The position numbers and the translations under genes are program-made. A model generated the notes under the pieces. That model saw only the letters and a program-made list of their open reading frames with translations, ran no database searches and was not told the origin of the DNA. A DNA stretch of 60,188 bases, filler included, from Hausera hauseri (lineage: Eukaryota): assembly GCA_046269625.1 (NCBI GenBank). It is 11 parts of 11 records of this genome, joined end to end, with 100 filler letters (N's around TTAATTAATTAA, not from the genome) between each part and the next. Parts side by side here need not be neighbours in the genome. Positions count along the whole stretch, not along the records: positions 18,675 to 26,359 come from JBJURY010908865.1; 10 more parts are not named here. One strand, written 5' to 3'. How positions within the stretch are numbered: position 1 is the stretch's first letter; each line of letters opens with the position of its first letter. Below, piece by piece: positions 2,796 through 39,388 of the stretch.

Positions 2796-2859
2796 CAATT
2801 ACAGATCGGGTTATTCTGTCGTCAAACAAAGAATTGGTTTTGGTTCAAAACCACTTTTG

Positions 2860-3737: not shown

Positions 3738-3829
3738 ACCAATATATCTCCTAAGACAATCACGTTAGTGCGTCACCTCTTCTGAAGCAATATGCACATC
3801 CGAGCATGCCTCTCAGACAGGAGAAATGT

Positions 3830-6165: not shown

Positions 6166-8425
6166 CGAGTTTCATGAATGCAGCTAAAAACTACAGTGTG
6201 TTTTCTATATCAATAAATGTTGTTTAACAATTAATTTAATTTTTGTTTTCACTTTCAATTCAATTTAAATTTGAATCAAATAAAAATCTCACTTAGTACT
6301 ATAAAAGTGTCATGTATATTTTTTCGTTTATTAACGCTAGTTGGATTGTATTTTAAAAACATTTTGTCACGGAAAATATGACTCACGCTTTAAAAGTTGT
6401 TAGTAAACCCAACATATAGACATTACAAGTAACTTCCACCATGCATAAGGGTCGTTACATCTAACTTGGTTTTGTTTTCACTGTTTTCTTATATCCATTT
6501 CTACAAAATCATTCATTTTAATAAAGAAGTTGTGACATTCATGTTAAATTTGCCTATTTATTATTGTCCAAAACGTAGTACTCTCACACTTACACAGTTT
6601 ATATAATATAAAATAATTAAATTCAATTGCCTATATTTTCTCTATCCTAAAACATCAAAATAAAAGTTAGATTAAACAACTATGTTTCATTATCCTTCCA
6701 CTGATTACTCTATATAAATTTAAAAATGCTAATTTTCAATTTATTATATTACCTTGTATTTTAATACCGAATTCATTGTTTGAATTCAAATTATTAAGTT
6801 CTTTATTAGTATTATCACGTTTCAACTAATCCAATGCACTGACCTCTCAAAACGCCTTCTTGCACCATAATAAAACAGAACTAAATTACAATGTATCCAT
6901 TTGATAAAGCCACAGTTAATGCTATTTCAAAGCACATGCGAAAGATCATTTTCAATTTCTTTATTATCCACATCAATTCATGAAAAAACATATACGTTTA
7001 TTTTGTTCAATTTGGAATAAAGTCATCATTCATGTAATACAATATTTTACAAAGTTGTCGTGGATTTGAAATTCATAATACATGAAGTACACAATTTTGT
7101 ATGATAATGTCACAAATATATCGTTGGTTTCCGTGAAAATTCCAACTATAGTTCTGTACAACAGAGTTATTGGTAGGACATTCATATTTCAATTTGAACT
7201 GAGATTAATTTAAATTAAAATGTCAACGTTTTATTATTATTTATTTTACCTTCTATACTTCTGTACTTTCCATGGTTAAATAATTGTAATATTACAGCAG
7301 CTACATATTGCTATAATTTTCAGTGATGATAAATTTTCGTTGAATAAAATTAATTGATACGTTCAGGGCAATCAGTAAATAACAAAATCACTCATTGGTA
7401 TATTTAGTATGTAAGAAAAATCTGTTCACGCTCCAATGAAAAAGCTTCGCAAAACATAATATACACAAAATCTCACATGAAAAAATGAATAAAAAATTTA
7501 TATTGTATAGTCATGCCTTATGTTTTGTAACCAAATTAATTCAATTTAACATTATTTGAAGAAATGTTTTGTCGTTTTATGGGAAATTGAGTACCAATTA
7601 TCTTGGACACTTCTTCATAAATCTTCTTAATGATAAGTTTAAAAAGGTTCAGAAATAACTTGGGTTTCTCAACCTCAAACGTATGCTTACTTAGGATCGA
7701 ATATGTTGCATGAAATTTTTCCTTATTCGAAGCCAAAGGAATTTATTTATTCTTAGAGGCAGAGTGTGGGGTTTGCCTGATAGATTATTTAGTCCTAATG
7801 AGTTCGAACACTAGGAGGAACACTAGTGCCGTTCTCTTAATTACGAAAGTTTACATTTATGGTTTTCTTATGATCGTTAAAAGAAACGGGTTTAATATTT
7901 ACTTTAAATAAAACCCTATTGCAATACGTACAATGTTAATTAATGTACTTACGATGTTAGGTATGCTATCAATAAAACACTAATTAATAAATATTAAAAG
8001 AACAAAGATAGAATTAAATAATTAAAGGTCTAAACAACCTTCACAATAAGGGATTAAAATAGGCTACGAAAGTTTAGAAAAGAAATGACAATCATTACAA
8101 TAAAACTGAAGTATAACAAATTAAAAGAAACTCACATGAGTTGTAACCATACATGTTGATCAGTGGTCAAGAGTATTTGGGTTTTATTTTCAAAATTTTC
8201 GGTATTTATAGGATTTCAGAGGTATAAGAAAATACCGATAAAATTACAATTAAATAAATAACATTGTGCAAAATCACAAATGAATTAAAAATGACACACA
8301 AAAACCAAAAGAATAATATTGGTTGTCTAGATCTAATCAAATTTTATATTTAAATTAAACAATTGATCAAAGTTAAGTTAAACTAGAATCTCAAATATCA
8401 AAGATTTGAAATTCATAATTTATTG

Positions 8426-9076
8426 TCAACACTTCCGTCCGCAGACAATGCTGTCCTCAGCATTGCTGGCTAAGTCTCCAACGTTCCATTCTCCAAACGA
8501 TAATTCAAAGATTCGTATTGCCGCCATTGATCCTTTTTCAAATTTGAGTTTGAAAGTGATCGACTCTTCCGTAGGGATTTTCCTTTTCTTTCTTTTCGTT
8601 AGGCCAACGAATGTTAGTTCGTGAGGCGTGACGAATGGTGATTGAGATAATGGTTCTAATTTGACGACTGATGATTGTAGTGACTATTTTGGTCGACTTC
8701 TTACCTTTGGAGATTCATCGATATCGATCGATGATTCGAATGATGACTCTGATTTGGAAACTGTTATTTTTGAGGGGTCGTCGATGTCCACTGATTCACT
8801 AAGTGATGGAGCAGTTTCATCGTCCGATAAAGCGAGCGATGTGAACTGTTCATTTTGAAGCTCCTGTATTGATGGTTTAGGTATTGACCCTGTAGTTTCG
8901 TCTCGATATTCTTCCAAGGTATTGTACATATTAAGTATGACTAACGCTTTATCTTTTGTCTTTGTTGGGTAGTTGATATTGTTGTATTTTAATAAAATTT
9001 GTTTCTGGGTCAGTTTTATCTTCGGGTTTATTTGTTCGTTGTGATAAAGGTCTCTGATGCCCATTATGTAGTCCAT
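8426..9076 (-). pseudogene. Unknown Ser/acidic protein with one in-frame TAG
   Basis: ORF 9076-8684 continues in the same frame past the TAG (SLQSSVVKLEP...TKRKKRKIP...CGRKC*) to a TGA at 8426, followed 1 nt later by AATAAA. Confidence 0.45.
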
Positions 9077-9982
9077 GTTAAACAGGGTGATTGGGAGTTA
9101 ATAGTAAATACATACATTCCAACGACCATCTTTTCTGTAAGTTGCTATAGGATAGTAGGCCAAATTTGACATTGATCGGTTTGGCCAATTAAATTAACTC
9201 CTTTTATTCCCATTATTGGGCCATTATAATTATCTGCACTCTCTCGTGGAGTAATAAGCTGGTCAAAGATAAATATTTATTCAAATCCATTAGAGTTCTC
9301 TCCACGAGAGTGGCTTCGGAACGATTGGCTGTGATTAAATAAGAAACATTAACGGCCATTATTACTATCTCGTTTATCGGGACTGTTGTATCCTGGAGAA
9401 GGTGAGTCCTTCCTCTAATTGTGGTCTGCTCGGGAGGGGTGTACTGAAGATGGCTATGTAATATTTTTGATGGTGGATGTTTTCTCTTCTAGTCACTACG
9501 ATGTAAAGAAATGGACTGAGCCTTCCTAAAGTTCTGAGTATTACTGTAGCGTTCGTATAGAGACGCTGATCCAGACAAATAGTAGAAAAAGGTGTTATGT
9601 CAAGTATATCTGCTATATTGTCATTGTGAGCTCTGCTTTTTAATTGCAGGCTTGCTTTTAGTGCCGATATATTTGTTAACCGCTCAGGAGCATCCGTGTT
9701 AAAAATAAGCCTACCAATTCTTTAAAATTCTGAACAACTTTATTTTCAAATATGCAATTTTATACAATCCACAATTTTAATCAAATCCTGTTACTTACTT
9801 TGCTCATTGGTACTCTACTTTACCACTTAACAAACAATACATAATCCATACGTGGAGCACGGGCGTTTAAGTCAAAATATATNNNNNNNNNNNNNNNNNN
9901 NNNNNNNNNNNNNNNNNNNNNNNNNNTTAATTAATTAANNNNNNNNNNNNNNNNNNNNNNNNNNNNNNNNNNNNNNNNNNNN

Positions 9983-18674: not shown

Positions 18675-18928
18675 AACAATGGTAGATCGCTGTCCTCGGA
18701 CGAAGTAGGTAACAAATTTCTGTTTCTTTTCAGTTGTCGGGCTCTCGCTTCTGCGAACCTTTTTCTAGCTGCTGCTCTAGTATTTGGATATGATGTGGTA
18801 TCTTCTGCTTTACTACTTTGGTTGGTTCGTATGGGGATTGTATCTTTCATGGGTGTCATTGACAAAGGTATTGGGCCTATCGCGTATCGGGTATCACTAT
18901 CAGAACCATCAAAAGTTTCACTGCTCAT
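18675..18928 (-). CDS. ORF2, 5' part (continues across the circular junction)
   Basis: Ends ...RNRNLLPTSSEDSDLPL, identical to the start of ORF 26323-25409. Confidence 0.8.
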
Positions 18929-19226
18929 TTCATTTCTATCCGTGTCGTTGCTCCATCTGTATTCTGCTTCTCAATGTTTTTCTCACCAATTCCTTCGCTG
19001 TCGTTTCTTGCTCGCTGTATGGGACAGGGATATTGATTCCTGGGATGTGGGGTATGGATATTAACTTCCTTCATGCGCTTGGGACAGGGATGGATTGGTT
19101 TGGGGATTGTTCTGCAATTCTTTTCTGAACAACGTCTCTTGCTATCTTCATCTACTTCCCTTGGTTCTTGTTCATTTCACTTCACTACTAATGGTCTTGG
19201 GTATCTTCGACTGATATCTCTCCTGT

Positions 19227-21524
19227 TTACGGCTTTCGTTTCCGTTGTTTTCTCCGCCCTGGCTGACTACTTTGTCTGTGTTTCCTTGATTGCTTTTCTG
19301 TCACTGGTTCCGTTTTACCTTCGCTACATCTCTCTGTTGCTATGTTACTATGAATATACCCCTGCGGTGGTGTCTGCGGATGCCTTGTAACAATGTCCCG
19401 ACTCAATTCTTGGTACCATTGGTTTATAATCGGGACTTCTTTCAGGGCACCTACGTACGTTTCATTTATCAAGTCCATGGTTTCTTTCTTGAGTCTTGCA
19501 TTGACACAATTCAGATACCAGTCCTCCTGGAAGTTAACTATCCGGTCTAAAATTTCATATAGTCGGTCTTTCCCTTCTTGTAATATTTTCTCGTATTCTT
19601 CCACCGAGGTTTTGTCAGCATCGACCCCCTCCACATGACAGTGTTGGTCGTTACTCAATGCTTGCAGGAGCGCCTCTTTTTCTGACAAACTCCTCTTGAG
19701 CTGTTCGATTGTTGGCTGTTGTGATTGCATTTGCTCTATCTCTTCCTTTATCTCCTCGTGGGATTTCCTCAAGGCTGCGTTTTCGGCCATCATACGGTCT
19801 AACTGATGCTGTGGAACTGTCATCATTTTTTCTTCCAACGTTTTGACTAATGTATCCGTCTTCTTCTGTATTTCTGTAAACTTCTCTTCGACACTTTGTT
19901 TCTGTTCAATTGCTTTATTCAACTTGTCCTGTAAGTCGACAAGTAACGTCTCTTTCTCTACAATATCCTTGTGTAGCTGGTCAACCAGTTCTCTGTGTTT
20001 GTAAACTTCTTCACAGTTGGTTTTCATTACTACCTTGTTGCTGTATAATTCTTCCTGCAATTCGTCATTTGCTTTTAGTAGTTCTTTATTTTGTTTCTCC
20101 AAATGCTCTACAATTTCTATCTGTACTTGACTCTCTTCTTTCAATTTTCTTATCAGCGCTTCTAAATTCTGAATTTTCTGTATATTCTCATTAACGCTTT
20201 CTGTCTCTTCAACAACCGCGCCGCTTTTAAGTTCGTTGCCGTACATTTTCTGCTTCTCCATTGTGCTTGTTAAAACATCTAACTGTGGCACACGCCTTTC
20301 GTCTTCAACTAGTTGTTCATTTGTCTCACTTGCAATGGTCTCTACTTTCTGTCGACGCCTTTTATTTCTAATTCTTCTTTGTCCAACTAGCTTCGTGTCT
20401 GGACTTTCAGTTTTGTGAACCGTATTCGCTGGCATTACCACATTCAAGCGTGTGGGCTGGCCAATCGGGATTCTTGAGGGTCTTATCCTTCTGTCCTCGA
20501 CTGCTCTTTGAACGGATCTTCCTCTTAAGTTTACTTGTCTAATCATCTTAAGGCGGGGTTCTTCTTCACTGGATGTGTCAGACTCTGCATGTCTCTGTGT
20601 GTTCTCTGACGTATCTGTTTCACTATTGCCAACACCTGTGTCAGCCTCCGTTTCTTTGCTGCTTTCTTCAGTTGACGTTTCTTTGTCAATCACTCTAATT
20701 TCAACTCTACGTTTCTTCAGATTTCTTTCGTCTTCGTCTTCGTCACCGCACTGACGCCCATTTTTCATACATTGTCGACTGACTTTGTGTATTAAACCTT
20801 TCAGTTTCTCGACTTCCTTGTACAGTTTCTGTATATCAACTTTGTCATATTCCGTTCTCTGTGTGAGTTCATTCTTATTGAATTCATCATCTGTGAACAA
20901 GTCTAACTGACCTTTCGTATTCTGTATACTGTCATTACAGTATATTTTGTGCACTTCAGTTACATGTCTGCACTGCTTGCATCTATTAAGACGAATGCTA
21001 CTGACTCGTCCGTTGGGTATGGAGCGCACTCCCATACTTCTTTCTATATGGTTTCTAGCGATTTGCTTTTCTGAAACCGAGGACTGTAACTCTGTCCTAC
21101 AAAACCTTGCAATGTGGCCTTCTCTTCCACATCTATAACACTTAATTCTCTTCTTAAATTCATATCTTCCACCTTTTCTTCTCATATGCTGTCGAGCGAT
21201 TTGCTTTCCAGCAATCAAGGTCTGCATCTGTTTTCTACAGACCCTGGCAATGTGGCCTAGTCTTCCACATTGAAAACACCTTATCCGCTTTCTGACTTCC
21301 TCTCTGCCGACTGTCTTCGATCTAAAGCCTGCAGTGCCGGGATTTTCTTTGAACGCGCCTGAACTCAAGGGTCTCCATTCTCCAACTGGAGTATGTCTGC
21401 CTACCCGCAAACTCTTCATCTTCCTCGTCTGTAACCCAGTGTACGCCTCTCTCCTCGCGCCATATTTCGCCATCCCAGTATCTATTTGACGCTGTGTCGC
21501 TGCTACCATTCTTTCTTCCGCCAT
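19227..21524 (-). CDS. ORF1: tandem CCHC zinc-knuckle plus long coiled-coil protein (Gag-derived, no evident capsid domain)
   Basis: CFQCGRLGHIARVC and CYRCGREGHIARFC near the N-terminus; heptad-rich C-terminal half. Likely start is the ATG at 21524 just after the PBS; the ORF track starts at 21578. Confidence 0.8.
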   Translation of the reverse strand: MAEERMVAATQRQIDTGMAKYGARREAYTGLQTRKMKSLRVGRHTPVGEWRPLSSGAFKENPGTAGFRSKTVGREEVRKRIRCFQCGRLGHIARVCRKQMQTLIAGKQIARQHMRRKGGRYEFKKRIKCYRCGREGHIARFCRTELQSSVSEKQIARNHIERSMGVRSIPNGRVSSIRLNRCKQCRHVTEVHKIYCNDSIQNTKGQLDLFTDDEFNKNELTQRTEYDKVDIQKLYKEVEKLKGLIHKVSRQCMKNGRQCGDEDEDERNLKKRRVEIRVIDKETSTEESSKETEADTGVGNSETDTSENTQRHAESDTSSEEEPRLKMIRQVNLRGRSVQRAVEDRRIRPSRIPIGQPTRLNVVMPANTVHKTESPDTKLVGQRRIRNKRRRQKVETIASETNEQLVEDERRVPQLDVLTSTMEKQKMYGNELKSGAVVEETESVNENIQKIQNLEALIRKLKEESQVQIEIVEHLEKQNKELLKANDELQEELYSNKVVMKTNCEEVYKHRELVDQLHKDIVEKETLLVDLQDKLNKAIEQKQSVEEKFTEIQKKTDTLVKTLEEKMMTVPQHQLDRMMAENAALRKSHEEIKEEIEQMQSQQPTIEQLKRSLSEKEALLQALSNDQHCHVEGVDADKTSVEEYEKILQEGKDRLYEILDRIVNFQEDWYLNCVNARLKKETMDLINETYVGALKEVPIINQWYQELSRDIVTRHPQTPPQGYIHSNIATERCSEGKTEPVTEKQSRKHRQSSQPGRRKQRKRKP

Positions 21525-21548
21525 ATTGTCTCTCAAACTTTCTTCCAA

Positions 21549-21569
21549 ATCCTGGTTGTCGCGGCACCA
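21549..21569 (-). promoter_or_regulatory. tRNA-His-type primer binding site
   Basis: TGGTGCCGCGACAACCAGGAT; 11 of the first 12 nt match the tRNA-His complement TGGTGCCGTGAC. Lies ~25 nt upstream of the ORF1 ATG. Confidence 0.65.
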
Positions 21570-21710
21570 AATAAACATATATAATGTTTGTGTGGCAGAT
21601 ATACCTACTACTCAACCATCTAGTTACTGCGATGCAGAATTGGTGCGCAGTGATCTAATATAGTGTTAGCATCTGTAGTCATCTGACGGTGGTTATCAAA
21701 TGCCCCCCAG

Positions 21711-23150
21711 TGTTCGTGTATTCACCGCATCAGACCCAAGCCACAAGCATAGTCAGCAACCTCAAATGAGACAACCAATACCGATCTATAAACTCAACAG
21801 TTATCCGTGCAATAATGTCTTGACACGAACTTTATAGACTGGAGAATGCGGATCTTGTCAATTAATGCAAATTTATTAACAACTATTAAAACTAACAATC
21901 ATGCATTAATGCGAACGGAATATTCAATATTCACACATATACGCTCGGGTACCAGTTTGGAAACATACCCATGAGCTATTAACTACAGATATAATGGCTC
22001 GTACATTAACAAACGTAGACACGGACCTCGGACACACAATGTCGAGATTTCAGACGATCAACAGAGGAAGCAACAGCGGGGCCGACCATAAGGTGCCGCA
22101 ACGTACACTCCATTGCCGCCTCTACGAATACATGTAAACATTCACAATAGACATGAGCCAAGACAACTAAACATAGAACAGCTAAGGTGCGCACTGACTA
22201 GCATTATCTTTACGAGCTCAATGTTCAACACCACAAGGTGGATATATATCCGTTTCCGGATCTCATTAGATACATCTTCCTATTCATCATTCGAACGTGC
22301 ACCATAGTTAATATCCCTAAACAAATACACGCTGAAATTGTACTCACGGCTTATCTGAATTAATACCCAATCCAGCTTCCGTTATTCACAGCGCTGGGTT
22401 CAGATAAAACATTGCTACCAAGTGGCGAAGTGGTTGATGTGCCACCTTGACGAAAGCTTCAATACAAATTCCTTATAAATCCTCAACCTTCTTCTGGTAC
22501 TCATACGAACGAGACACGTACCTTTGTAGAAGACGAAATCTGCTGTATTTTCTGTTGCAGACTTATACGTTGGTGGTTCTCCACAACCACGTCGTCACAA
22601 ACACTGGAATATCTTCGTAGACGATATCAAAGCTGTAGCTGAATCCAGCTGTGCGTGGGTTCAAAGCACATGAGCTCCAAGTTGGGCTCATCAAGGAAAA
22701 CTTTCCCTATACCAATACAGAACACTCCTCTCCCTCTCTGGAGTTCAGACGAAGAATGCGTTCATACAAGGCTGAAACTGGCCTTCTCCAATAGAGCAAT
22801 CTGCTCTGACAACAATGGTGTCCTCTCTCCACGAGGTTCTGACAAAAATGCGCTCATACAAGGCTGAAACTGGCCTTCTCCAATAGAGCAATCTGCTCTG
22901 ACAACAATAGTGTCCTCTCTCCACGAGGTTCTGACAAAAATGCGCTGCCGTTGCCGCGTTACAATTAGTTTTGTTACTTTCCGTTGTTAACCATGACGTT
23001 ATTTCACGTGCGGTTACGACTACACAAGTCGTTAGGTTGATTTATGTACCTTTTGTCTGCTGCTCTTCTTCGAGGCTATTTGTCGCCTTTTTTAGTGACG
23101 TCATTCTTCTTATTTATCTTCTGGCGTCTGGCGTATCGTACTCTACGACA
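21711..23150 (-). repeat. Putative LTR (~1,440 bp), TGTCGT...ACGAACA
   Basis: Preceded by PPT AAGAGAGGGGCGTG (23151-23164); TG...CA ends with an imperfect inverted repeat; AATAAA at 21872-21877; followed by C-TGGGGGG. The 3' boundary could instead extend to ~21570. Confidence 0.65.
22762..22945. repeat. 92-bp tandem duplication in the U3-equivalent part of the LTR
   Basis: 22762-22853 and 22854-22945 differ by one mismatch. Confidence 0.9.
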
Positions 23151-23396
23151 CACGCCCCTCTCTTAAATGAAAGATGTTTTTTCTACTCCTGTAGACAAAA
23201 CTTCTTTCTATACGTTCCAGTTCATCTGTGTTCTCGTTTGAATGTTCATTGTGTGGGCTTCACTCTCCATACTCCGCCCCTCCCTTAATGAAAAATTATT
23301 TTTCATTTCCGTTCCATATTGTTACAGGTCTATAATCTGTTCGGTTACTCGTGGAAATGGAAAATCTTTTCCTTTCCGTGTTGAATTCTTGACTTT

Positions 23397-25472
23397 CTAA
23401 ACCTTCTGTATGGTGAGACTCGGGTAAATAGTTCCGATGTCCCTATATTCGACTCTCGTCGCCTTGCTGAGATTGTCAGCTTTCTCGATAATTGCTTCAT
23501 TGTTATTGTTATCTCGCTCTTTCTTTGCGTGGTAGCCTATGAAATTTCGTAGTTTTGGCCAACAGTGAAATTTCCGATTCACTCCGAACAGTATGGCTCC
23601 TGCCACTATTATCGCTATAATGATCAAGATACCAGGATCGTTTCGATTGCTTCCCACTTCTAAGTCTTGGATGGTCTGGAACTGGTTTAGTTCATGGAGC
23701 ATTTCGTGGAAATCGATCTTCTCTATGTCTTTCAGATGTGTGGGGAGTTTAACAAATTTTAACTTCACGCTGTTTTTGACTTTGTCATCTGCTAGTCCTT
23801 GCCATTGTTGTAATTGCAGACCTGTTGTTTGTGCCTTGAATGTAATGAGATCGACTTGTGACTTGAAATTCTGCGTTTCTGTAATAATCATTTCTCTGGT
23901 GTATAATGAGCATGTACTTGGTAAGCGAAGTATCTCAAGATTCTTTGTAAATTGAATTTCTTCTGTATGTGTTTGTCCTCCGTTTTCGCATATGTGTCTG
24001 GCTTTCGTTGGTGTGTTGGACAGGAGTGCCCATGTTTCGGTTCCCAGTTTGATCGCTTGTGGTGTTCTTGGTCTTCGAACTAGTTCTGATCTGCATACTT
24101 TGCTTGTTATTGCTGTGTTCCCTTCGTATAAATTGAGAAGACAGGACTCTGAATCTTTAGTTGTGTACATTGGTTCTTCAATATTACAATATTCTGTGGT
24201 GGTTTCTCTGCAACTTTGTAATTTGTCTGCTTGTAGTACTGTGTACAAAGTTTCGGCTTTATTGATCAATAGCGTTTTGCCTTCGGGAATGTATCTAAGA
24301 TAATAGTTGTTCAGCCAATCAGGTTGTTTGGTGTTTGTGTTAGCCTGCGTCATCCCGATGCTTGTAACGTCATATAGCTCGTATTTGTCATTGATGTTAA
24401 CCAACAGCATGTCGAGTGTGATAACCATTTGTCCTCGATGTATGTATGTTGCCGTTTCTATTTGATTATAATATTCACTGAGGTGTCTTTCAAGATCTAT
24501 TGGCATGTTCAGTGTACGTGGAATATTTTGTTGTATATCTCGTAATATCTGTTGTAATTCGCCTGGTTTGACTGTGTTGATATTGAGTCTTCGTAACGGA
24601 ATAAGGCTTACTATGAACTCGAGTCTGCGCGTAATACTTTCTGCTCGTCGTACTAACTCTTTACATCTTTCTTCAATAGACATTATCATGCCAAGCGTGT
24701 TCAGTTGTGTTTGTAAATCGTGTGTTATGTTTTCTATATTTTCTTCCATGTCTTGCATCCCTGTCTCGATGCGGCTTAAATGACCTGCATATTCATTTAT
24801 CTTTTTCCTGTTCTCGCCGATTTCTTTGTTGGAAATGTTTATTGCTGAGATACTATGTTGCAGTGCGTGTTTCATGATCTCTATATTTCCATTTACCACA
24901 TGTATGCTCTGCTTGATGCTCTGCAGATCGGACTCTTCAGCAGTACCGACTAATGTGTCTAGTAATTCTCCCACAAACGGAAGTATTGCTCTTTTTCTTC
25001 TCCCTTTCGTCAACCAGTTCAATCGTGTTTTCATATCTTGAACTTCTTCTTGCCATATTCCAATTTCTCGTTCAGATTCCAGGATAATCGTTTGGAAATG
25101 AGTTGCTGGCGTAGGTTTCTGAATTCTTTCTTTGCGATACACCGATTTGTGAAGCAATAATCTGGCATTCTTCAGCTGGGTCTCAATGTCTGTTAACTGT
25201 ACTTTAAAAGTCACTAGTGATTGTATTATTACTAATCTCCATCGAGCTTGTACCATATGTACATCCTTAACTTTCAAAAATATTGTGCCTTGCGACTGAA
25301 ACAAGTCCTGCTTGGTGTGTGTCATTCTGATCAGAACCGAGCATGTAAACACTGTTATCCACTGATACCAGCGCATTGTTCTGTGGACAAACATGGTATG
25401 TACTGCTATTATGCTAACTTTAGCATATTTTGTAAAAATAGTTTCATAATGTTTTCTTTTTCTGTTTCCCAT
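23397..25472 (-). CDS. env: Class I fusion envelope glycoprotein, baculovirus-F / errantivirus Env-like (691 aa)
   Basis: Signal-like MRWYQWITVFTCSVLI; furin site GRRKR followed by fusion peptide AILPFVGELLDTLVGTAEESD; heptad repeat; Cys-rich region; TM GILIIIAIIVAGAILFGV; tail ending IYPSL. Confidence 0.9.
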   Translation of the reverse strand: MGNRKRKHYETIFTKYAKVSIIAVHTMFVHRTMRWYQWITVFTCSVLIRMTHTKQDLFQSQGTIFLKVKDVHMVQARWRLVIIQSLVTFKVQLTDIETQLKNARLLLHKSVYRKERIQKPTPATHFQTIILESEREIGIWQEEVQDMKTRLNWLTKGRRKRAILPFVGELLDTLVGTAEESDLQSIKQSIHVVNGNIEIMKHALQHSISAINISNKEIGENRKKINEYAGHLSRIETGMQDMEENIENITHDLQTQLNTLGMIMSIEERCKELVRRAESITRRLEFIVSLIPLRRLNINTVKPGELQQILRDIQQNIPRTLNMPIDLERHLSEYYNQIETATYIHRGQMVITLDMLLVNINDKYELYDVTSIGMTQANTNTKQPDWLNNYYLRYIPEGKTLLINKAETLYTVLQADKLQSCRETTTEYCNIEEPMYTTKDSESCLLNLYEGNTAITSKVCRSELVRRPRTPQAIKLGTETWALLSNTPTKARHICENGGQTHTEEIQFTKNLEILRLPSTCSLYTREMIITETQNFKSQVDLITFKAQTTGLQLQQWQGLADDKVKNSVKLKFVKLPTHLKDIEKIDFHEMLHELNQFQTIQDLEVGSNRNDPGILIIIAIIVAGAILFGVNRKFHCWPKLRNFIGYHAKKERDNNNNEAIIEKADNLSKATRVEYRDIGTIYPSLTIQKV

Positions 25473-26359
25473 TGGTTTCCCACAAATACCACATTTTGCT
25501 GAGCTGAGCCTGGAAGTTGTGTTTCTTTGTCGATTTCATGCGTTAGCGTGTTGTCTCTACAACCACTCTGCTTCTCCTGTATCTGTCTTACGCTCGACTG
25601 ATTCACTTGGGCGGTCGGCTCTTTTCTCGTGATTACCTCAGTGATTTGTTTTCTCAACTTTGTAATCGTCGCTGTTTTCTCCGCACTGGCTTCTTCCAGC
25701 TTTGTAGTTTGATGTTCCATTTCTCGAAGCATGGTTTCCGTTTCATGAACCCTGTGTTGTAATTCTTTGGTTCTGTTCTCGGCTTCTCTTCTCGCTTCTA
25801 TAAGCTTGTCAAGACTTTCTCGTATACTCTTCATTTCCTCATCTTTGTGCCGCGCTATTTCTTGTATTTCTGCAATCTTGGTTTCTACTTGGCGTCTGGC
25901 TATTTCTTGTTGCTTTCTAATTTCTTGAATCGGTGTTACAGTATTTCGATTGTTTTTCATGACCGCACTAATGGGAATTCTTGACCGTTTTCGCCCATTA
26001 TCGTCAGTTCTGTGAACATATGTTCTGCGTATAGCTTCTTGGCGAGTGACTTTATTTCTTGGGGCATCTTCCGTGGAGGTGTCTGCATCTCTGGTTCTCT
26101 TTGTATGTCGTACAATGCGTTCCATTTCCGACGTCGTGGTATCGGAAGTGTCTTCACTGACTGTGTTGGCAGAGTCTCCTGTGCTACTATCTTGTGGTGG
26201 TGCTATCTGCGTTACATCCTTATCTTCGTTAGCTTCTTGTGATTGTCTAATTTCTCTGTCACGTAGCCTACGTTTTCTTTCTAACAATGGTAGATCGCTG
26301 TCCTCGGACGAAGTAGGTAACAAATTTCTGTTTCTTTTCAGTTGTCGGGCTCTCGCTTC
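25409..26359 (-). CDS. ORF2, 3' part: coiled-coil protein (~375 aa when joined), paralogous to the middle of ORF1
   Basis: Open frame continuous across the junction; DTSTEDAPRNKVTRQ...SRIPI aligns with ORF1 DTSSEEEPRLKMIRQ...SRIPI. Confidence 0.8.
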   Translation of the reverse strand, partial: EARARQLKRNRNLLPTSSEDSDLPLLERKRRLRDREIRQSQEANEDKDVTQIAPPQDSSTGDSANTVSEDTSDTTTSEMERIVRHTKRTRDADTSTEDAPRNKVTRQEAIRRTYVHRTDDNGRKRSRIPISAVMKNNRNTVTPIQEIRKQQEIARRQVETKIAEIQEIARHKDEEMKSIRESLDKLIEARREAENRTKELQHRVHETETMLREMEHQTTKLEEASAEKTATITKLRKQITEVITRKEPTAQVNQSSVRQIQEKQSGCRDNTLTHEIDKETQLPGSAQQNVVFVGNQWETEKENIMKLFLQNMLKLA

Positions 26360-26459: not shown

Positions 26460-29400
26460 CTTCGTTGCTTCTTTCGTTCGTTCGTTCGTTCTTTCATCCC
26501 TTCATTCGTTCATTCCTTCGTTTGTACCTTCGTTCGATCGTTCCTTCGTTCTTTCGTTCGTTCGTTCTATCGGTCGTTCTTTTGTTCGTTCCTTCGTTCG
26601 TTCGTTCGGTCCTTCTTTCCTTCGTTTGTTCCTTTGTTTGTTCGTCCGTCCGTTCGTTTGTTCATTCGTTCGTTCTATAGTTCCTTCGCTCGTTCTTTCG
26701 TTCGTTCGTTCGTTAGTTCGTTCGTTCGTTCTCTCGTTCGTTGGTTCCTTTGTTCGTTCGTTCGTTCTCTCGTTCGTCCGTTTTTTCATTCTTTCGTTCG
26801 TTCGTTCTTACGTTCGTTCGTTTGTTCTCTCGTTCGTTCGTTCCTTTTTTCGTTCTTTCCTTCGTTCGTTCGTTCGTTCGTTCGTTCTTTCGTTGCTTCT
26901 TTCGTTCGTTCTTTCGTTGCTTCTTTCGTTCGTTCGTTTGTTCGTTCGTTCGTTCATTCGTATGTCCGTTCTTTTGTTCTTTCGTTTGATTATTTGTTCG
27001 TTCAATCGATCTTTGTTCGTTTGTTCGTTCGCCCGTGCTTTCGTTCGTTCGGTCGTCCCTTCGTACGTTCATTCCTTCGTTTATGTGTTCGTTCGTTCTT
27101 TCGTTCGTNNNNNNNNNNNNNNNNNNNNNNNNNNNNNNNNNNNNNNNNNNNNNNNNNNNNNNNNNNNNNNNNNNNNNNNNNNNNNNNNNNNNNNNNNNNN
27201 NNNNNNNNNNNNNNNNNNNNNNNNNNNNNNNNNNNNNNNNNNNNNNNNNNNNNNNNNNNNNNNNNNNNNCGTTCGTTCGTTTGTTCATATGTCCGTTCTT
27301 TCGTTCTTTAGTTTGATTGTCCGCTCGTTCAATCGATCGTTGTTCGTTCGTTCGTTCGCCCGTGCGTTCGTTCGTTCATTCCTTTGTTCGTTTGTTCATT
27401 CCTTCTTTCTTTCGTTCATTCGTTGCTTCTTTCGTTCGTTCGATCGTTCATTGGTTCGTTCGTTCGTTCCTATGTTCGTTCGTTCTTTCGTTCGTGCGTT
27501 CGTTCGTTCGTTCGTTCGTTCGTTCGTTCTTTGCTTCTTTCCAGCTTTGGTTCGTTCGTTCGTTCGTTCGTTCTTTCGCTCGTTCGTTCGTTCGTTTGTG
27601 CATCCCTTCTTTCGTTCATTCCTTCGTTCATTTCTTTGTTCGTTCCTTCGTTCGTTCTTTCTTTCGTTCGTTCTTTCGTTCGTTCTTTCTTTTGTTCGCT
27701 CGTTCTTTCGTTTGTTCGTTTGTTCGTTCGTCCCTTCGTTCGTTCATTCCTTCGTTCGTTCCTTCGTTCGTTCCTCCCTTCGTTCTTTCTTTTGTTCGTT
27801 TTTTCTTTCTTTCGTTTGTTCGTTCGTTGATTCTTTCCTTCGCTCTTTCGTTGCTTCTTTCGTTCGTTCTTTCGTTCATTCATCTCTTCGTTCGTTCATT
27901 TTTTCCTTTTTACGTTCGTTCGATCGTTCGTTCGTTCGATAGTTCTTTCGTTCTTTTCTTCTTCGTTCCTTCGCTCTTACCTTCGTTCTTTTGTTCGTTC
28001 TTCCGTTCGTTCGTTTGATCGTTCGTTCGTTCGTTCTTTCATACTTTCGTTGGTTCATTTCTTCATTTTTACGTTCGTTCGATCGATCGTTCGTTCGTTC
28101 CTTTGTTGGTTCGTTCTTTCGTTCGTTCGTTCTTTCGTTCGTTCGTTCTTTCGTGCGTTCTTTCGTTCTTTCGTTCGTTCGTTCGTTCGTTCATTTGTTC
28201 GTTCGTTCCTTCGTTCGTTTTTCTTTCCTTCCTTCGTTCTTTGCTTCTGTCGTTCGTTCGTTCGTTCGTTCGTCCCTTCCTTCGCTCATTCCTTTGTTCG
28301 TTCCTTCGTTCGATCCTTCGTTCGTTCCTTCTTTGGTTCGTTCTTTCTTTCGTTCTTTCTTTTGTTCGCTCGTTCTTTAGTTTGCTCGTTCGTTCGTTCG
28401 TCCCTTCGTTTGTTCATTCCTTCGTTCGTTCCTTCGTTCGTTCCTCCGTTCGTTCTTTCTTTCGTTCGTTCTTTCTTTTGTTTGTTTGTTCGTTCGTTGA
28501 TTCTTTCCTTTGTTTGTTCGTTGCTTCTTTCGTTCGTTCGTTCGTTCTTTCATCCATTCGTTCGTTCATTCCTTCCTTTTTACGTTCGTTCGTTCGTTCG
28601 TTCGTTCGTTCCCTCGATAGTTCGTTTGTTCTTTCGTTCGTTCGTTGCTTCTTTCGTTCGTTCATTTGTTCGTTCGTTCTTTCAATCGTTTGTTTTGTCG
28701 TTTGATTCTTCGTTCGTTCGCTCGTTCGTTCGTTCGTTCCTTCGTTGCTTCTTTCCATTGTTTGTTCGTTGCATATTTCGTTCGTTCGTTCGTTCTTTCG
28801 TTCGTTCTTTCTTTTGTTCGCTCGTTCTTTCGTTTGTTTGTTCGTTCGTTGGTTCGTTCGTTCGTTCATCCCTTCTTTCGTTCATTCGTTCGTTCGTTCC
28901 TTTGTTCGTTCTTTCGGTCATTCGTTCGTTCGTTCGTTTATTCGTTCGTTCTTTCGTTCCTTCGTTTGTTTCTCTTTCGTTCGTTCGTTCATTGCTTCTT
29001 TCGTTCGTTCGTTCTTTCGGTCGTCCCTTCGTTCGCCCATTCCTTCGTTCGTTCCTTCGTTCGTTCTTTCTTTCGTTCGTTCTTTCTTTCGTTCGTTCGT
29101 TCGTTCGTTGCTTCTTTCCTTCGTTCCTTCGTTGCTTCTTTCGTTCGTTCGTTCGTTCTTTCATCCCTTCATTCGTTCATTCCTTCGTTTGTACCTTCGT
29201 TCGTTCGTTCGGTCCTTCTTTCGTTCGTTCGTTCCTTTGTTTTTTCGTCCGTCCGTTCGTTCGTTCATTCGTTCTTTCTATCGTTCCTTCATTCGTTCTT
29301 TCGTTCGTTCGTTCGTTAGTTCGTTCGTTCGTTCTCTCGTTCTTTCGTTCCTTCGTTCGTTCGTTCGTTCTCTCGTTCGTTCGTTCCTTCATTCTTTCGT

Positions 29401-31488
29401 TCGTTCGTTCTTTCGTTCGTTCGTTCGTTCTCTCCTTTGTTCGTTCCTTTGTTCGTTCTGTCCTTCGTTCGTTTTTTCGTTCGTTCGTTCGTTCGTTCGT
29501 TCTTTCTCTCGTTTGTTCGTTCCTGCGTTCGTCCGTTCGTTCGTTCGTCCGTCTGAACCTTCGTTCCTTCATTCCTTTCTTCGTTCGTTTGTCCTTTCGT
29601 TGCTTCTTTCGTTCGTTCCTTTGTTTGTTTTTTCTTTCGTTCGTTCTTTCGTTCGTTCGTTCGGTCGTTCGTTCATTCTTTCCTTCGTTCGTTCGTTGCA
29701 TCTTTCGTTTGTTCTTTCGTTCGTTCTTTCGTTCGTTCTTTCTTTTGTTCGCTCGGTCTTTCCTATTATCGTTCGTTCGTTCGTCCCTTCGTTCCGTCAT
29801 TCCTTCGTTCGTTCCTCCGTTCGTTCTTTCTTTCGTTCGTTCTTTCGTTCGTTCGTTCGTTTGTTCGTTGCTTCTTTCCTTCGTTTGTTCGTTGCTTCTT
29901 TCGTTCGTTCGTTCCTTCGTTCATACCTTCGTTCGTTCATTCCTTCGTTCGTTCTTTTGTTCGTTCTTTCGTTTGTTCGTTCATTCGTTCGTTCGTTCTT
30001 TCGTTGCTTTTTTCCTTCGTTCGCTCTTGCTTGCGTTCGTTCTTTCGTTCGTTCCTTGCTTCTTTCGTTTCTTCTTTCGTTGCTTCTTTCCTTCGTTCGT
30101 TCGTTTGTTCCTTCTTTCTTTTGTTCGTTCTTTCTTTCTTTCGTTCGTTCTTTCATTTTTTCGTTCATTCTTTGTTTCCTTCATTTTTTCCTTTGTTCTT
30201 TCTTTCGTTCTTTCGTTCTTTTGTTCTTTCGTTCATTCATTTGTTCGTTCGTTCGTTGTTTCGTTCATTACTTCGTTCCTCGTTTTTTCGTTTATTCCTT
30301 TGTTCGCTCGTTCATTCTTTCATTCGTTCTTTCTTTCTTTCATTCTTTCGTTCGTTCCTTCGTTTCTTCATTCGTTCGTTCTTTCGTTCGTTCATTCGTT
30401 AGTTTTTTCGTTCCTTTGTTTGATCTTTCGTTTATTTGTTCCTTCCTTCGTTCGTTCCTTCTTTCTTTCTTTCGTTCCTTCGTTCATTCCTTCGTTCTTT
30501 CGTTCGTTCTTTTGTTCGTTTGTTCGTTCTTTCTTTCCTATGTTGCTTTTATCGTTTATTCCTTCTTTTGTTCGTTCGGTCCTTCGTTCTTTCATTGGTT
30601 CCTTCATTGGTTCGTTCGTTCTTTCTTTCCTTCTTTCGTTCGCTCGTTCTTTCTTTTGTTCGATCGTTCCTTCCTTCCTTTGTTCGTTCGTTCTTTCGTT
30701 TTTTCGTTGCTTTTTTCCTTCGTTCGTTCGCTGCTTCTTTCTTTCGTTCATTCGTTCGTTGTTTCCTTCGTTCGCTCATACTTTCGTTCTTTCATTCCTT
30801 CGTTTGTTCGTTCGTTCTTTCGTTCGTTTGTTCGTTTCTTCGTTCTTTCGTTCGTTCATTTTTTCGTTCGATCGTTCGCTCGTTTGTCCCATAGATCGTT
30901 AGTTCCTTCCCTTTTTCCTTCTTTCCTTAGTTCGTTCGCACTTTCGTTCGTTCCTTCAATCGTTCGTTTGTTCGTTCCTTCATTCATTCGTTCTTTTTTT
31001 CGCTCGTTTTTTCGTTTGTTTGTTCGTTCGTTCGTTCTTTCATCCCTTCGTTCTTTTATTCCATCGTTAGTTTGCTCAGTCGTTCTTTCCTACGTTTGTT
31101 CGTTCATTCCTTCATTCGTTCGTTCGTTTGTTCGTTCATTCGTTCGTTTTTTCGTTCGATCGTTCGCTCGTTTGTCCCATAGATTGTTAGTTCCTTCCCT
31201 TTTTCCTTCTTTCCTTAGTTCGTTCGCACTTTCTTTCGTTCCTTCATTCGTTCGTTAGGTCATTCGTTCGTTCTTTTGTTCGCTCGTTCTTTCGTTTGTT
31301 CGTTTGTTTGTTCGTTCTTTCATTTCTTCGTTCTTTCATTCCATCGTTCTTTTGTTCATTCGTTCTTTCGTTCGTTCATTCGTTCGTTCGTTCGTTCGTT
31401 CCTTCGTTGCTGCTTTCCTTCGTTTGTTCGTTGCTTCTTTCGTTCGTTTGTTCGTTTATCCCATCCTTCGTTCACTCCTTCGTCCGTT
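26460..31488. repeat. Degenerate (TTCG)n / (CGAA)n satellite
   Basis: The whole contig is TTCG-derived with TTCT/TTCC/TTTG/TTCA variants; the + strand is strongly A-depleted. Confidence 0.97.
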
Positions 31489-32373: not shown

Positions 32374-34739
32374 CAGAGGTTCCCAAACTTTTTTCTCTCG
32401 CAGACCCTTTGCCATGTTTTTCGGTTTTGGGTAGACCCCTTGCTATACACTATAAAAGATTTAAATTTCAACAGTAATGAAGTTCCTATAATGTGAAAAA
32501 GCAAAAGCAAAAACAAAACAAAACATTTTTATATAATTATTAATTAAATTTAAATTAAAATATTATAGTATCTGTTACATAAAAAGAAATAAGCAAAAAA
32601 ATATATTCATTTAATGGGAGGGATGAACTTGATGATTTAATAACAAATTATCAACAGTTGGCTTCAATTTAGTTAGATTTAATCTCAAATCTCCTCGGTT
32701 AATGATGTCCAGTTTGTTTCTTTTTTTGTAATGAGATTTGTCACTGCGCTGAAACCTCTTTCCACTAGATATGAAGACGGAAAAGCAATTAAAAACTTTC
32801 TCGCGGTATTCCATAATACGGGATAAGTAATAGGTATGTCTTTTTGAAGCCAGAAATGTTGATATCCGTTTCTAAACTGTACCTTAAGTTCTTCGTTAGT
32901 ACTTATTCCAATCAATTCCTCTTGTAACGTGACATCCGTTTCTTCAATGTCACCATATGGATTGATAATCCATTGCGGTATTATCAGCGTCAAAATATCC
33001 TCAAATCTAGTTTCAAAATCTGAATGGAGTGCTGTCAAATGTTGGACATAGATTGCAACATCGTCTTCCTGGCAGTTAACCTGGGACAAATTGGGGAACT
33101 GGGAAAATTCGCACCGTCCAATGTTTTGCTTCATCAGTTTAATTCTGGCAAGAAACGCTGAAATGATCGACTTTGTTTTAATCAGGTTTAAACTGTCACC
33201 TTGCAGCTGCAAGTTCACCATATTAAATTTAGCAAACAAATCTGTCAAATAAGCAATGTCTGTTTTTCTCTTCAATAAATTTTCTTTCAAATTTTCATCT
33301 TTACCATCGAGAAACTCTATAACAGTTTCAAATAGTGTAAAAAATCTTGTTAAGCATAAGCCTTTCGACAGCCAGCGCACTTTTGTGTGAAGAAGTAATT
33401 GGTAGAAGTTCTCGTCATTTTCTTCACACAACTGCGCAAATAACCGCGTATTCAACGCATTGTTTCGAATTCGGTTTACTGCATCAATGACAAATTGGAG
33501 AGATTCATGCAATCTTACATTCAAATTTTTAGCAACTAAATGTTGTCTATGGATGACACAGTGTACAGCTAAAACCCCGGGTACGTTTTCTTTTAAAAAG
33601 CTTATAAAGCCACGATAACGCCCAACCATGGCAGGTGCTCCATCTGTAGCTACCGATATTATATTTGATAAAGGAATTACTTTGTCCATGAAGTAATCCT
33701 TCAAAACATGAAATATTGATTCGCCTTTAGTATCGGTTGCCAAAGTTCTCGCAAATAGCAATTCTTCGTGGATATTTTGATCCATAATAAAACGTACATA
33801 TGCCAATAATAATGTTTCATTATCAGGTAAAGTTGACTCGTCCAGCTGTATAGAGAAATGGGTCGTTTGCAAATAATTACATAAGAAGCTTTCAATATCA
33901 TAACTCATTTCATCAATACGTCTTTGAACTGAGTTTTTGCTTAAGGAAATTTTTTTAATGATATCAAATGCAGGCTTGTGTAAAACAGTTTTTAAAACTT
34001 CCTCAATGGCTGGCAAAATTAACTGTTCTCCGATAGTATGCGGTTTTCCGGATTTTGCTATAAGCAACGAGATATTGTAAGACGCACGCAAACCATCATC
34101 GTTTCTTTGTGACGTTGAAGTGAACATTTTGTCCAGTGTGGGTCTTTTCTGAAAATTCTCTTTAAGTGTTTGAAAATATTTCAAATCTTTATCTGTTTTA
34201 TCAGGGTGACATCGTCTTAGATGATCTTCCAGCTTAGATGGCTTCATAGCGTCATTGCTAAAAACTTTGTTGCATAAAAGGCACAAGGGCATTTGTTTGT
34301 TCGACAATGATGGGATGAACCCAAACTTCAGATAATCTACATTGTACTGTCTGCATTTCTTTTTTGATTCCGTCATGTTTAGTGTCAATTGTCTGTGGAT
34401 AAAAATAATCTATTTAAACAAAATGATATTGATTCACTTTAATTTATAAGTGCCTAATTACCAGTTTACATTATTATTAAATATTTTCCTTTTTAAGACT
34501 AATGATATCATAAATAAGGTTAGTTTTATTGCCGAGAAAGAAGCTTATATTAATATTTTTATAATATTTTTAATATTAAAACTGTATCAATTATACTGTT
34601 TTTTGCATTTTTTGAAAAATTCTTCCCATTGACCCCCAATTACATTTCATAGACCCCCAATTTTTGTTTTTCCCACGTAGACCCCTTGCATGTCTTCATC
34701 GCCCCTGGGGGTCGATATGGACCACTTTGGAAATCACTG
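32374..34739 (-). mobile_element. hAT Buster-family DNA transposon (2,366 bp)
   Basis: TIRs CAGAGGTTCCCAAA / CAGTGATTTCCAAA; subterminal GACCCC repeats at both ends; nnnTAnnn flanks. Confidence 0.9.
32611..34388 (-). CDS. Buster-type hAT transposase (SCAND3/ZBED8-like), single frameshift near the C-terminus
   Basis: BED finger (CLLC...HLRRCH), SIQLDEST, TDGAPAM, HCVIH, VRWLS, FPSSYLVERGFS. The true C-terminus (RGDLRLNLT...HPSH*) is in another frame after an A-run near 32720-32727. Confidence 0.9.
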
Positions 34740-36323: not shown

Positions 36324-36510
36324 GCAGCGATCGATTTGTGAAATGTGCAAAAGTGCCCTTAGCAACGGTGCCTAACGGCACCGTTGCCAGGCACTTTATG
36401 AATCGATTGTGCTCCGGGTGCACTATCGATCGGCACATGTGCAATATCGATTTATCGATTAACCCCCCACCCCCGGGGGGTCTGTGCCCGAATTCCCATT
36501 TCCCCCTACT
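36324..36510. mobile_element. Probable Maverick-type terminal region with a strong hairpin
   Basis: GC-rich, repeated ATCGAT, hairpin at 36350-36397, ends CCCCCTACT. Confidence 0.4.
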
Positions 36511-37497
36511 ATTCGCAATGGACATAGTCTCCAATCGATACGTATGACGTTGACACCCCTTGGACTGTATAGGTAAATTTCACCGTTGTCTGGTAATATA
36601 CGGGACTTAATCTTGGACCAACTTCATATTCACTTTTAATATGTTTACCTTTGTACTCTATTTTTGAATCCAAATTTCTGCGCCATCTCAGAGGACTCAA
36701 AGTTAACAGTAAATTCAAAATCTGCCATAAAATGTAAGTTTTGATCTAAAGAAAAAGCACCGATTTTGCCTTGTAAATGGCCGATTCTCCAACTGCTATT
36801 TTATTCTTAGTAAGTGTCAGAGTACAAGTATGTGTTTTGGTTTCAGTAGCAGTCTTGTACGTTATTTTCATACTACCTTTCAATGTCACTGGTGCGTAGG
36901 GAAAGTTAAATTCCGTATGTGAAACCTCTCATTTTCCAGATAAATCCAAAGGATTGTTCCAATCTGCAATGTTTTCACGGGCTGAATTGTTCGGAAAAGT
37001 CGTCGGACAACTGTTACTCGGCAATACCATGTAAATACTCAAGCACAATGATATCAATGATGATAATGCAGTTTGTTTATTACCGACGACGTCGAAAATG
37101 TACCGTCAAATGTGTCGTTGACCCAAACAGAAATTTAATGGGTTTCCAAAATTCACCAAGCATATACACGGAAATACTGTGCACAATATTGTGAGACAAT
37201 GATAAGTACATGGGTCTGAGCATATTAACGAGTACAGTTTCACCCGATGTTTTGTACGTGTACAGTGCAATAACACAAATCGTTTTTCTCCGATGTGAAG
37301 AGGCGGAATTGAATGTAATGTCACCGGAACAATGGGGATTGTTTTGCATCAGTGAATGGACACGAAATGAATATAAAGAATTTGGCTTTGGTGATATGGA
37401 CAAAACCACCTGTTTAATGGTTGTGATGATAATAATAATATTAGTTAGTTGTTTTGCTTGTTTTATAAACAGAAAATGATTTTGTACATGATAAGTA

Positions 37498-37980
37498 ATG
37501 GCTACAGGATTTATAGATATTGAAGCTTTCCAAGATGATAATGCCCGGTACATAATAAAGAAATTATGCATTATGGACGTCGGTAACATTTTCGAACCGT
37601 TTGTGTACATATGCAGGCCCGGTATTGTGTGGTAAGACATGACGGAAATTACAAATGGATTTCTCTATCGACATCGTCATGGACTTCATTAGTATGAAGG
37701 TAATTCAACTTTTTGTGCGCCATATATTATGCAAGAGATTTGTGATCGTTTTGACACTGCAAATACGATATTTTACATTAAAGATCAAATTGACGGATAA
37801 AAGTTTACACAACTCCATTCACAGTTTCCCGAGTTGCGAATGATGACGTATTCAACAACATCGAACAACTCGCTGGCGATGGTACCTGACAATATCCGAT
37901 ATCCGTATCGTGATCATGGACAACATTGTGCTTACAAAAAATGTCTATGGCTTTGTATTGACTATATTTCATGCAAATAA
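37498..37980 (+). pseudogene. DEDD-like exonuclease accessory gene of a Maverick-type element
   Basis: MATGFIDIEAFQ (DxE), YIIKKL, HGLH*YEG, FYIK and C-terminal DHGQHCA. Three stops and a frameshift; not in the ORF track. Confidence 0.55.
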
Positions 37981-38090
37981 ATAAACGTATTTCTGTGTTT
38001 CTTTTTTCTTTCCATAAATAAGGTACGACGTATTGGTCATTTCAGTAATTCAAAAACTATAAATATGGGTAGTAAATAATATTCATCATC

Positions 38091-38565
38091 ATGGAAATAG
38101 TTTATCAACTGAAGCAATTGCAAAATTTTGATGGATTATCAATTTCAGACATGGTACGATGGTGGCAAGTGCTTGATAGTGAGCTGGTTGCAACAGCTGC
38201 AGGTGATTGTGGATTTAAAGAAGATTTAGCGTCAATAGCATTGGTGACAACAACAGTAGCAGATTGCAGCTCTATAGAAAATCTAATTATTATGTTAAAT
38301 CAAATGTACATTCACCGATTGTAAGATACAAATGACTTTAATACTGTTGAAAAGGTACGCGGTGGACTAACGAACTTGAAAGAGAAAATAATCGAGAAAG
38401 TACGAGACTGTTAGTTTATATGCGTACTATGTAATCAAAGAAAAGTGGATATGGTATTCCTAATGTGCGGTCATCTTGTTGTGTCAAATATGTTCCACCA
38501 AAGTAACAACCCAATGTCCAGAATGTAAATGTGCTATAATGGAAATTGTACCCATTTATTACTAA
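38091..38565 (+). pseudogene. Protein with C-terminal IAP-type RING finger
   Basis: LCVLC...MVFLMCGHLV...CPECKCAIMEIVPIYY* across frameshifts. Confidence 0.7.
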
Positions 38566-38746
38566 TGACTTCTTCAATAGCGGAACATGGGCTTCAATGA
38601 CGTGGAGGTAATTTGTATCATTGTAATATGAGACAATACTCAGAAAGTAAATGCCTATTGTTTATAATGAAAACAAACCTTTGACATAAATAAAGATATC
38701 AATGTCTTTGGGAAACAATTAAGCAGGTGACAGTCTCAAAAAGCCA

Positions 38747-39163: not shown

Positions 39164-39388
39164 CTTAATTTGTTTTTGATTTTGGCTTATGATGAATAAT
39201 AAATTTTATTGATTTTGTTTGTTTGTCATATTGTTTCTCGTCACATTAAGTTAAATAGATAAATTAAACGATAATAAAACAGAAGGCGAAAACAACGAAT
39301 AATATACATTATTTATACAAAAGAAACAGATCACATTGATTTGTCACAATCATTTGATCTGTCTGCACCGAATTCATGCGTGCGTGTT

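Follow-up and report, generated by a model that had tools for sequence, protein, structure and literature searches.

A candidate helper-dependent, env-bearing LTR element without pol in the Hausera hauseri assembly

Loss of pol with retention of an envelope gene is already precedented among long terminal repeat (LTR) elements. TelKA2n of Adineta vaga is a non-autonomous env-F LTR family without C-terminal gag and most of pol (PMC5408684). Harlequin, a human mosaic of class I endogenous retroviruses, has been re-amplified and is defective in gag, pro and pol, with an env that is often rather intact (PMC4724089), and its authors propose that envelope is supplied in trans. In mosquitoes, Anakin, a BEL/Pao element with a chuvirus glycoprotein, is present as 50 "defective + LTR" copies versus 13 complete ones (PMC7642597). 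Here, we analyzed a 60,188-nt window (the whole stretch of DNA examined, filler included) from the Hausera hauseri assembly GCA_046269625.1, focusing on positions 18675–26359, which are exactly one of its 11 contigs and hold a unit whose parts all lie on the minus strand. With a probability of about 0.62, we consider this unit to be a non-autonomous, multi-copy, env-F errantivirus-like LTR element of an animal, probably invertebrate, genome that is mobilised in trans. Many near-identical copies, each arranged as LTR-ORF1-ORF2-env-LTR (ORF, open reading frame), would then have been collapsed into the one contig, which was circularised by the assembler.

Like TelKA2n, the element is a probable invertebrate LTR element that encodes an F-type fusion glycoprotein and is without most of pol and part of gag. 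Unlike TelKA2n, it has no pol remnant, keeps nucleocapsid-type knuckles without a detected capsid and carries two orphan coiled-coil ORFs. Defective Anakin copies are similar in that two-LTR copies keep the glycoprotein while some pol domains are lost, but there the glycoprotein is gB-like, the backbone is BEL/Pao and remnants of gag and pol are recognisable (PMC7642597). Harlequin differs in belonging to a vertebrate retrovirus lineage, in its Env class and in consisting of old, decayed mosaics, and orphan coiled-coil ORFs are not reported in the accessible part of that paper. Culex non-autonomous elements differ in being without coding capacity. The BEL/Pao element roo also encodes an F-like protein (PMC13524379); the present element has no pol by which to place it. 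Troyka was considered and rejected, as it has CG...CG termini, an LTR of 100–400 bp and no env (PMC12440569), while the present element has TG...CA ends, a 1,564-nt LTR and env. The metazoan errantivirus survey (Chary and Hayashi, PMC13524379) required full reverse transcriptase (RT) and integrase, so pol-less elements would have been invisible to it. No direct description of the layout was found in the literature searched (most subscription journals and Repbase lay outside it), which does not establish its absence from print, and the fusion-peptide motif had no match when the eLife supplements were searched.

Env, the LTR and the missing pol

The env gene (23397..25394, minus strand) encodes a predicted class I F-type fusion glycoprotein of 659 aa from the ATG at 25376, or slightly longer (candidate starts at 25472, 25394 and 25376). 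It carries a furin site (25001–24990), a fusion peptide, conserved cysteines and a transmembrane helix near 23636–23577 (hydrophobic peak at residue 581), and thus has the F/gB type, cleavage site, fusion peptide and membrane anchor by which errantivirus envelopes are recognised. A HMMER scan returned 868 relatives at E ≤ 0.001 (best 5.8e-48, ~25% identity); 14 of the 20 relatives scanned, from 150 listed, passed Pfam Baculo_F, while the query itself fell below it. The empty result of a word-index search with Env was a failure of sensitivity, since the HMMER scan found relatives. Across an alignment of 113 Env sequences, four cysteines never vary and the furin arginine hardly does. The Env alignments diverged too much to serve as seeds for locus scans. 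The atlas places Env with Baculo_F clusters at 0.97, but the recognition value is low. The structural model (predicted local distance difference test, pLDDT, 75.6) matches baculovirus F (E 2.9e-22) as well as the F proteins of respiratory syncytial virus (RSV) and paramyxoviruses (RSV F, best E 7.7e-10). The original prediction's F-type Env is therefore borne out by its relatives, by Baculo_F among them and by the F-like model; the gene looks intact, and fusion activity is predicted. Separately, in P0130, a 1,090-aa Env relative, the Env part is preceded by a weak match to an integrase C-terminus (E 0.004), a hint of a possible pol-env fusion in that relative.

The putative LTR (21589..23152, minus strand) is 1,564 nt long and has TG...CA ends with an 8/10 terminal inverted repeat; its ends were placed from motifs and not from flanks. 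The end at 21589 has an 8/10 reverse-complement match to the first ten bases, the sole such match in the 1,872 non-coding nt of the unit, and this LTR would be one collapsed copy representing both LTRs of each element. Its U3-like part contains 2.2 tandem copies of a 92-nt unit (22743..22946), which may be enhancer-like. Directly 5′ of the LTR start, and followed by TG, is a polypurine tract (23153..23164, minus strand), where loose ends in the read-run contigs described below lie at 23150 and 23168; a second tract-like motif with a similar lead-in occurs ~120 nt upstream (23274..23286, minus strand). At the other end of the LTR, a 19-nt spacer with a small A/U-rich hairpin (21570..21588, minus strand) leads to a primer-binding site (21558..21569, minus strand) that matches 11/12 positions of the tRNA-His(GUG) 3′ end, by comparison with the PMC13524379 supplement, versus only 10/12 for tRNA-Phe. 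Folding of the leader RNA was no better than that of shuffles (z 0.18). Pairing with tRNA-His presumably goes on past a 3-nt insertion, over 21548–21569. Rfam and tRNA scans within the window gave no match, and a splice-signal scan found one acceptor-like site 5′ of ORF2, none 5′ of env, and no donor.

In that supplement, 17 elements are purely His-primed (His_GUG; six rows labelled mixed Phe/His are excluded from this count), and 16/17 are ENV_F. Their hosts are ten molluscs, four annelids, two barnacle-group crustaceans and one wasp, and in 13/17 the gap between LTR and primer site is 7–20 nt (PMC13524379). The element resembles this His-primed group of "ancient" env-F errantiviruses in its F-type Env with a furin site and fusion peptide, tRNA-His primer, LTR-primer gap, env placed last before the polypurine tract and multiple copies. 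As the His primer and the gap are as in the published group, they back the placement of the LTR end; they also suggest kinship with that group, a placement that would rest on primer and Env type, with no tree. The differences are the LTR, which is 1,564 nt here versus about 245–770 nt in the 17 His rows, and pol, which is absent here, whereas the surveyed elements are gag-pol-env by definition (PMC13524379).

On the minus strand, the unit runs LTR, primer site, ORF1, ORF2 (across the contig junction), Env and polypurine tract, with gaps between parts of 45, 298, 14–32 and 232 nt, and in its 1,872 nt of non-coding sequence no frame stays open for more than 117 codons. In a six-frame motif scan of the element, protease, RNase H and GPY/F motifs were absent; a single RT-like pattern and a single integrase-like pattern appeared on the opposite strand, the latter interrupted by stops. 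The neighbouring decayed pol pieces did not match the element, and no pol remnant was found in the inter-ORF gaps. The predicted anatomy (one LTR-like region, a primer-binding site, a polypurine tract and three open ORFs) is present as described, and the gap sizes and the 117-codon maximum agree with the claim that it leaves no room for protease, RT, RNase H or integrase. The element thus has the LTR, tRNA primer site and polypurine tract of an errantivirus and has no pol (protease, RT, RNase H, integrase) to group with Ty3/Gypsy. As pol is absent and has no room, we do not file the element as an errantivirus, only as working like a dependent of one.

Read depth, the closed contig and sister families

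Positions 18675–18751 are identical to 26283–26359, the exact 77-nt terminal overlap that had been predicted, and the spacing of 7,608 gives a 7,608-bp unit. The overlap lies inside ORF2 and is an assembly cycle, not a biological end. The reading frame passes through the junction, as also claimed: the ORF2 piece ending at 18677 and the piece beginning at 26359 share 25 residues, last in the former and first in the latter. Junction support was looked for and found, as an independent 573-nt contig crosses at the internal depth (115), and a variant contig (depth 11.9) crosses with a 12-nt in-frame replacement. These contigs come from read runs compared with the element; the best-matching run, X1, contains 95% of sampled words and could be the sample of origin, and its layout was read from 24/184 loose ends and 32/407 pieces. 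Contig depth is used here as a rough measure and not as copy number.

The X1 piece within the LTR (21804–22565) has a depth of 226.2, and five long near-exact internal pieces have depths of 115.1, 123.3, 121.3, 106.8 and 80.8, giving LTR/internal ratios of 1.97, 1.83, 1.86, 2.12 and 2.80. The original prediction's 1-LTR circle or shared-LTR tandem array would both give a ratio of 1, against the ~2 observed, and we regard either as very improbable, even with a contig that closes exactly and a junction that is supported. Another contig of the window (4806–9882, a 5,000-bp unit; one other of the 11) also closes with an exact 77-nt terminal overlap, from which we infer that the assembler's k-mer was most likely 77. 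An LTR-internal-LTR repeat forms such a cycle in any de Bruijn graph. The simplest reading is that the circular contig is an assembly-graph cycle of collapsed two-LTR integrated copies, with individual flanks too shallow to branch the graph; two LTRs per copy are indicated indirectly, through the depth ratio, and no LTR-LTR joint was seen among the rows listed. The lowest internal depth (81, over 24139–25716) coincides with variant contigs at depth 32–46 that would bring it back to baseline. This dip may mark a subfamily with another ORF2 end and env 5′ half, i.e., recombination with a sister family.

The same depths bear on whether real copies contain gag-pol that was lost through repeat collapse. 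The assembly is a short-read assembly of a repeat family, and 32/407 pieces were listed, which favors such a shortcut. However, it would require an internal repeat of at least 77 nt, and only a 73% identical duplication at the ORF1 knuckles and the LTR tandem are present. A contig spanning 20494–21161, just past the knuckles where pol would begin, has a depth of 121, and the ORF1-ORF2 interval is at baseline (119.7 at 19134 and 19160) with no listed loose end. As the junction is also crossed by a second contig at the internal depth, pol has probably not been skipped, and we find a shortcut hardly credible.

The main allele is near-uniform over hundreds of nucleotides, with 0–1 differences in long pieces, and minor variants at depth 3–19 point to a copy number of perhaps tens. 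There are also low-depth copies with deletions of 81–1,150 nt, and one piece differs 50 times over 403 nt, so older, decaying copies exist. This combination bears on a further alternative, in which the element is a recent, neutral deletion derivative of one autonomous element, with ORFs that are open through youth and an ORF1 that is perhaps a fusion of a gag remnant and an accessory gene. The uniform main allele fits this, TelKA2n originated in this way (PMC5408684), and the selection figures given below cover env and ORF2 but not ORF1. Nevertheless, no gap holds a pol remnant, no parent with near-identical ORFs lifts the depth stepwise over part of the unit, and older deleted copies have the same layout, so we consider a neutral derivative quite improbable.

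In X1, depth is raised over ORF2, the 3′ untranslated region and the start of the LTR, which indicates related families in this run. Sister sequences in X1–X3 keep the polypurine tract, a block common to the sister families, and a similar LTR start, and then diverge; the sister families also share an ORF2 motif at high depth. Two loose ends were read by hand. Beside 18747, the ORF2 frame continues with 7/10 residues identical, six of them via synonymous codons. Beside 24943, the Env frame continues after the fusion peptide, so some sister sequences carry their own env. The pieces in runs X2–X4 are short, at depth 2–6, and many are identical; they may be cross-talk (all eight runs are from 2024) and were not counted as independent hosts. 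Apparent env-deleted sisters (joints 23375 to 25024 at depth 112, and 23308 to 24989 in X4) were distrusted, as their short side is 22–24 nt. Among the 40/107 variant rows listed, 11 non-coding rows were set aside, two fell in an 83-codon frame between ORF1 and ORF2, and 27 in env or ORF2. Of these 27, 13 are synonymous, compared with 21–27% expected (p 0.016 or 0.002, by transition weighting), and none introduces a stop. Env and ORF2 were therefore constrained in the lineage; the comparison is between families and is not evidence for constraint after pol was lost.

ORF1, ORF2 and the rest of the window

ORF1 (19227..21524, minus strand; 765 aa) was described from its open frame, Pfam, repeats and a model. 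Its N-terminus is short and basic, and the protein has two CCHC knuckles (Pfam PF00098, E 2.3e-9) and one further Cys/His cluster, together with acidic low-complexity tracts, basic tracts, an extended coiled coil (~441–626) and a helical C-terminal part. The two knuckles are the product of a 138-nt internal duplication, the copies of which are now 73% identical. In a sequence search against the PDB, only the knuckles of ORF1 matched, to retroviral nucleocapsids. With the knuckles at residues 80–143, there is no space for a capsid ahead of them, and what follows is the coiled coil, with protease not next; given this order, ORF1 is no simple truncated gag. The single-sequence model is of low confidence (mean pLDDT 47.5). 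Foldseek found no match to it at E ≤ 0.001, and VIA-align gave a best Z of 8.7, to generic helical bundles, over 496–632; these fold searches hardly probe the remaining parts of ORF1. The predicted lack of a capsid thus stands, insofar as none is detectable by Pfam, by PDB sequence search or by a fold search with this poor model, and a hidden capsid fold in ORF1 appears unlikely on that modelling. No BEL/Pao Pfam family matched ORF1 at E ≤ 0.1, a word-index protein search (less sensitive than the HMMER scan used for Env and, like the word searches with Env and ORF2, restricted to proteins of near length) found no relatives, and an atlas search with residues 180–765 gave a best score of 0.87 and no family.

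ORF2 is split by the contig ends into a 5′ part (18675..18928, minus strand), which begins at the ATG at 18928, and a 3′ part (25409..26359, minus strand), which has a Ser/Thr/Asp-rich block followed by a coiled coil. The whole protein is 375 aa, with no transmembrane segment. Its Ser/Thr/Asp-rich block is 35% identical to ORF1 residues 281–371 (E 5e-7), a score reached by 0/200 local shuffles; as any extended DNA match is gone, this likeness points to an old duplication. ORF2 was queried as separate pieces only: a word-index search with a 316-aa part gave no match, nor did PDB sequence searches with the pieces. Single-protein scans of metagenome and viral contigs also found no relatives. ORF1 and ORF2 would therefore be unexplained protein families, with an orphan status that is weakly tested, on searches weaker than those for Env. 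A stop-free frame of 83 codons lies between ORF1 and ORF2 (18925..19176, minus strand); its coding status is doubtful, and 0/2 of its variants are synonymous. Its stop overlaps the ORF2 ATG (18925–18928), a layout by which some RNA viruses achieve termination-reinitiation.

Small, separate contigs make up the window, and the contig of the element is bounded by N44-spacer-N44 joins. The majority of the contigs are repeat families (Gypsy-like fragments, polymerase-B-like frames, a transposase and a simple-repeat array), and the window probably resembles the unplaced, repeat-rich fraction of a short-read animal assembly. The element has no match elsewhere in the window by blastn, and no second env was found by profile. 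Nearly every other element had been described as decayed, which is largely so, apart from two open frames. One is a 574-codon transposase-like frame (32688–34409, minus strand; with a weak BED zinc-finger match), which we take to be hAT-transposase-like. The other is a 504-codon polymerase-B-like frame (45961–47472), in a group of three contigs (36324–47472) with several polymerase-B-like frames of the protein-primed type, one of which matches endonuclease VII; we assume these to be Maverick/Polinton-like. Orphan accessory ORFs are common to the decayed contigs 1–4705 (plus strand) and 52175–54966 (minus strand), at 41% identity (E 2e-26 and 8e-11). In 1–4705 they lie downstream of integrase, and the end of one homolog is hydrophobic and resembles a membrane anchor. 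These shared ORFs suggest that the host has a family of complex Gypsy-like elements carrying additional genes. Contig 4806–9882 has a 182-codon frame without a Pfam match, with several motifs that we take to be AT-hook-like, and the next contig after the element (26460–31488) is a long degenerate simple-repeat array of 4-nt units.

Dependence on a helper and its meaning

An F-type Env with no pol and no detectable capsid implies dependence on a helper, which supports the earlier proposal that pol and capsid are borrowed in trans. For amplification, RT, RNase H, integrase and capsid must come from a second element compatible with this primer and these LTR ends. For the element as a non-autonomous family mobilised in trans, we envisage transcription from the 5′ LTR, packaging of its RNA into the capsid of a related gag-pol element, reverse transcription by the helper's RT from tRNA-His and the polypurine tract, and integration by the helper's integrase. 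Its own Env would coat the shared particles and could allow cell-to-cell or soma-to-germline spread. As a guess, ORF1 could be an oligomeric RNA-binding adaptor, through its knuckles and coiled coil, that favors packaging of the element's own RNA. ORF2, which has one block in common with ORF1, would be a coiled-coil protein with an accessory role.

Several points weigh against this account. No integration flank or target-site duplication was found among the 24/184 loose ends and 32/407 pieces listed, and unintegrated linear DNA would likewise give a 2:1 depth. Contig depth is rough, and the kind of run that X1 represents is not on record. The synonymous excess is borderline for Env alone (p 0.025–0.084) and for ORF2 alone (p 0.08), and the count rests on 29/107 variant rows, which are non-independent and include none in ORF1. 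Finally, pattern scans did not identify a helper element, with 0 matches to the DNA patterns for the polypurine block and the primer site.

The dependence could instead be mutual, in a stable two-part system in which the element gives Env and RNA-binding proteins and an env-less gag-pol partner returns capsid, RT and integrase. Three open ORFs in a high-copy family, an ORF1 that is no simple truncated gag, and sisters that have the ORF2 motif, the polypurine tract and the start of the LTR in common at high depth, with codon-level conservation, are consistent with such a system. However, the partner was not seen, and some sister sequences have their own env (the loose ends near 24943). In addition, at a ratio near 2 there is little scope for a partner with an identical LTR, which at a similar copy number would be expected to raise the ratio above 2 and interrupt the contig there; a partner with no more than the LTR ends and priming sites in common would still fit. 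We consider a stable two-part system unlikely. Possible, though still doubtful, is a long-lived enveloped satellite lineage that gave up pol and capsid and was selected as an envelope donor to env-less gag-pol partners. There, ORF1 would act as an adaptor for packaging, or even as an RNA scaffold that needs no capsid, and the whole would be a functionally two-part invertebrate system.

What stays unexplained is the knuckle-first ORF1 without a detectable capsid and the partly paralogous ORF2, neither of which had a match in the searches run, and the conserved sister families. Should the element prove to be no more than a young deletion derivative, it would count as a neat but unremarkable non-autonomous family. 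Should families that lack pol and keep env intact prove common and selected, envelope function would be separable from replication and tradable between elements. That would change the reading of env retention and loss in invertebrate retroelements and would provide a natural case of pseudotyping.

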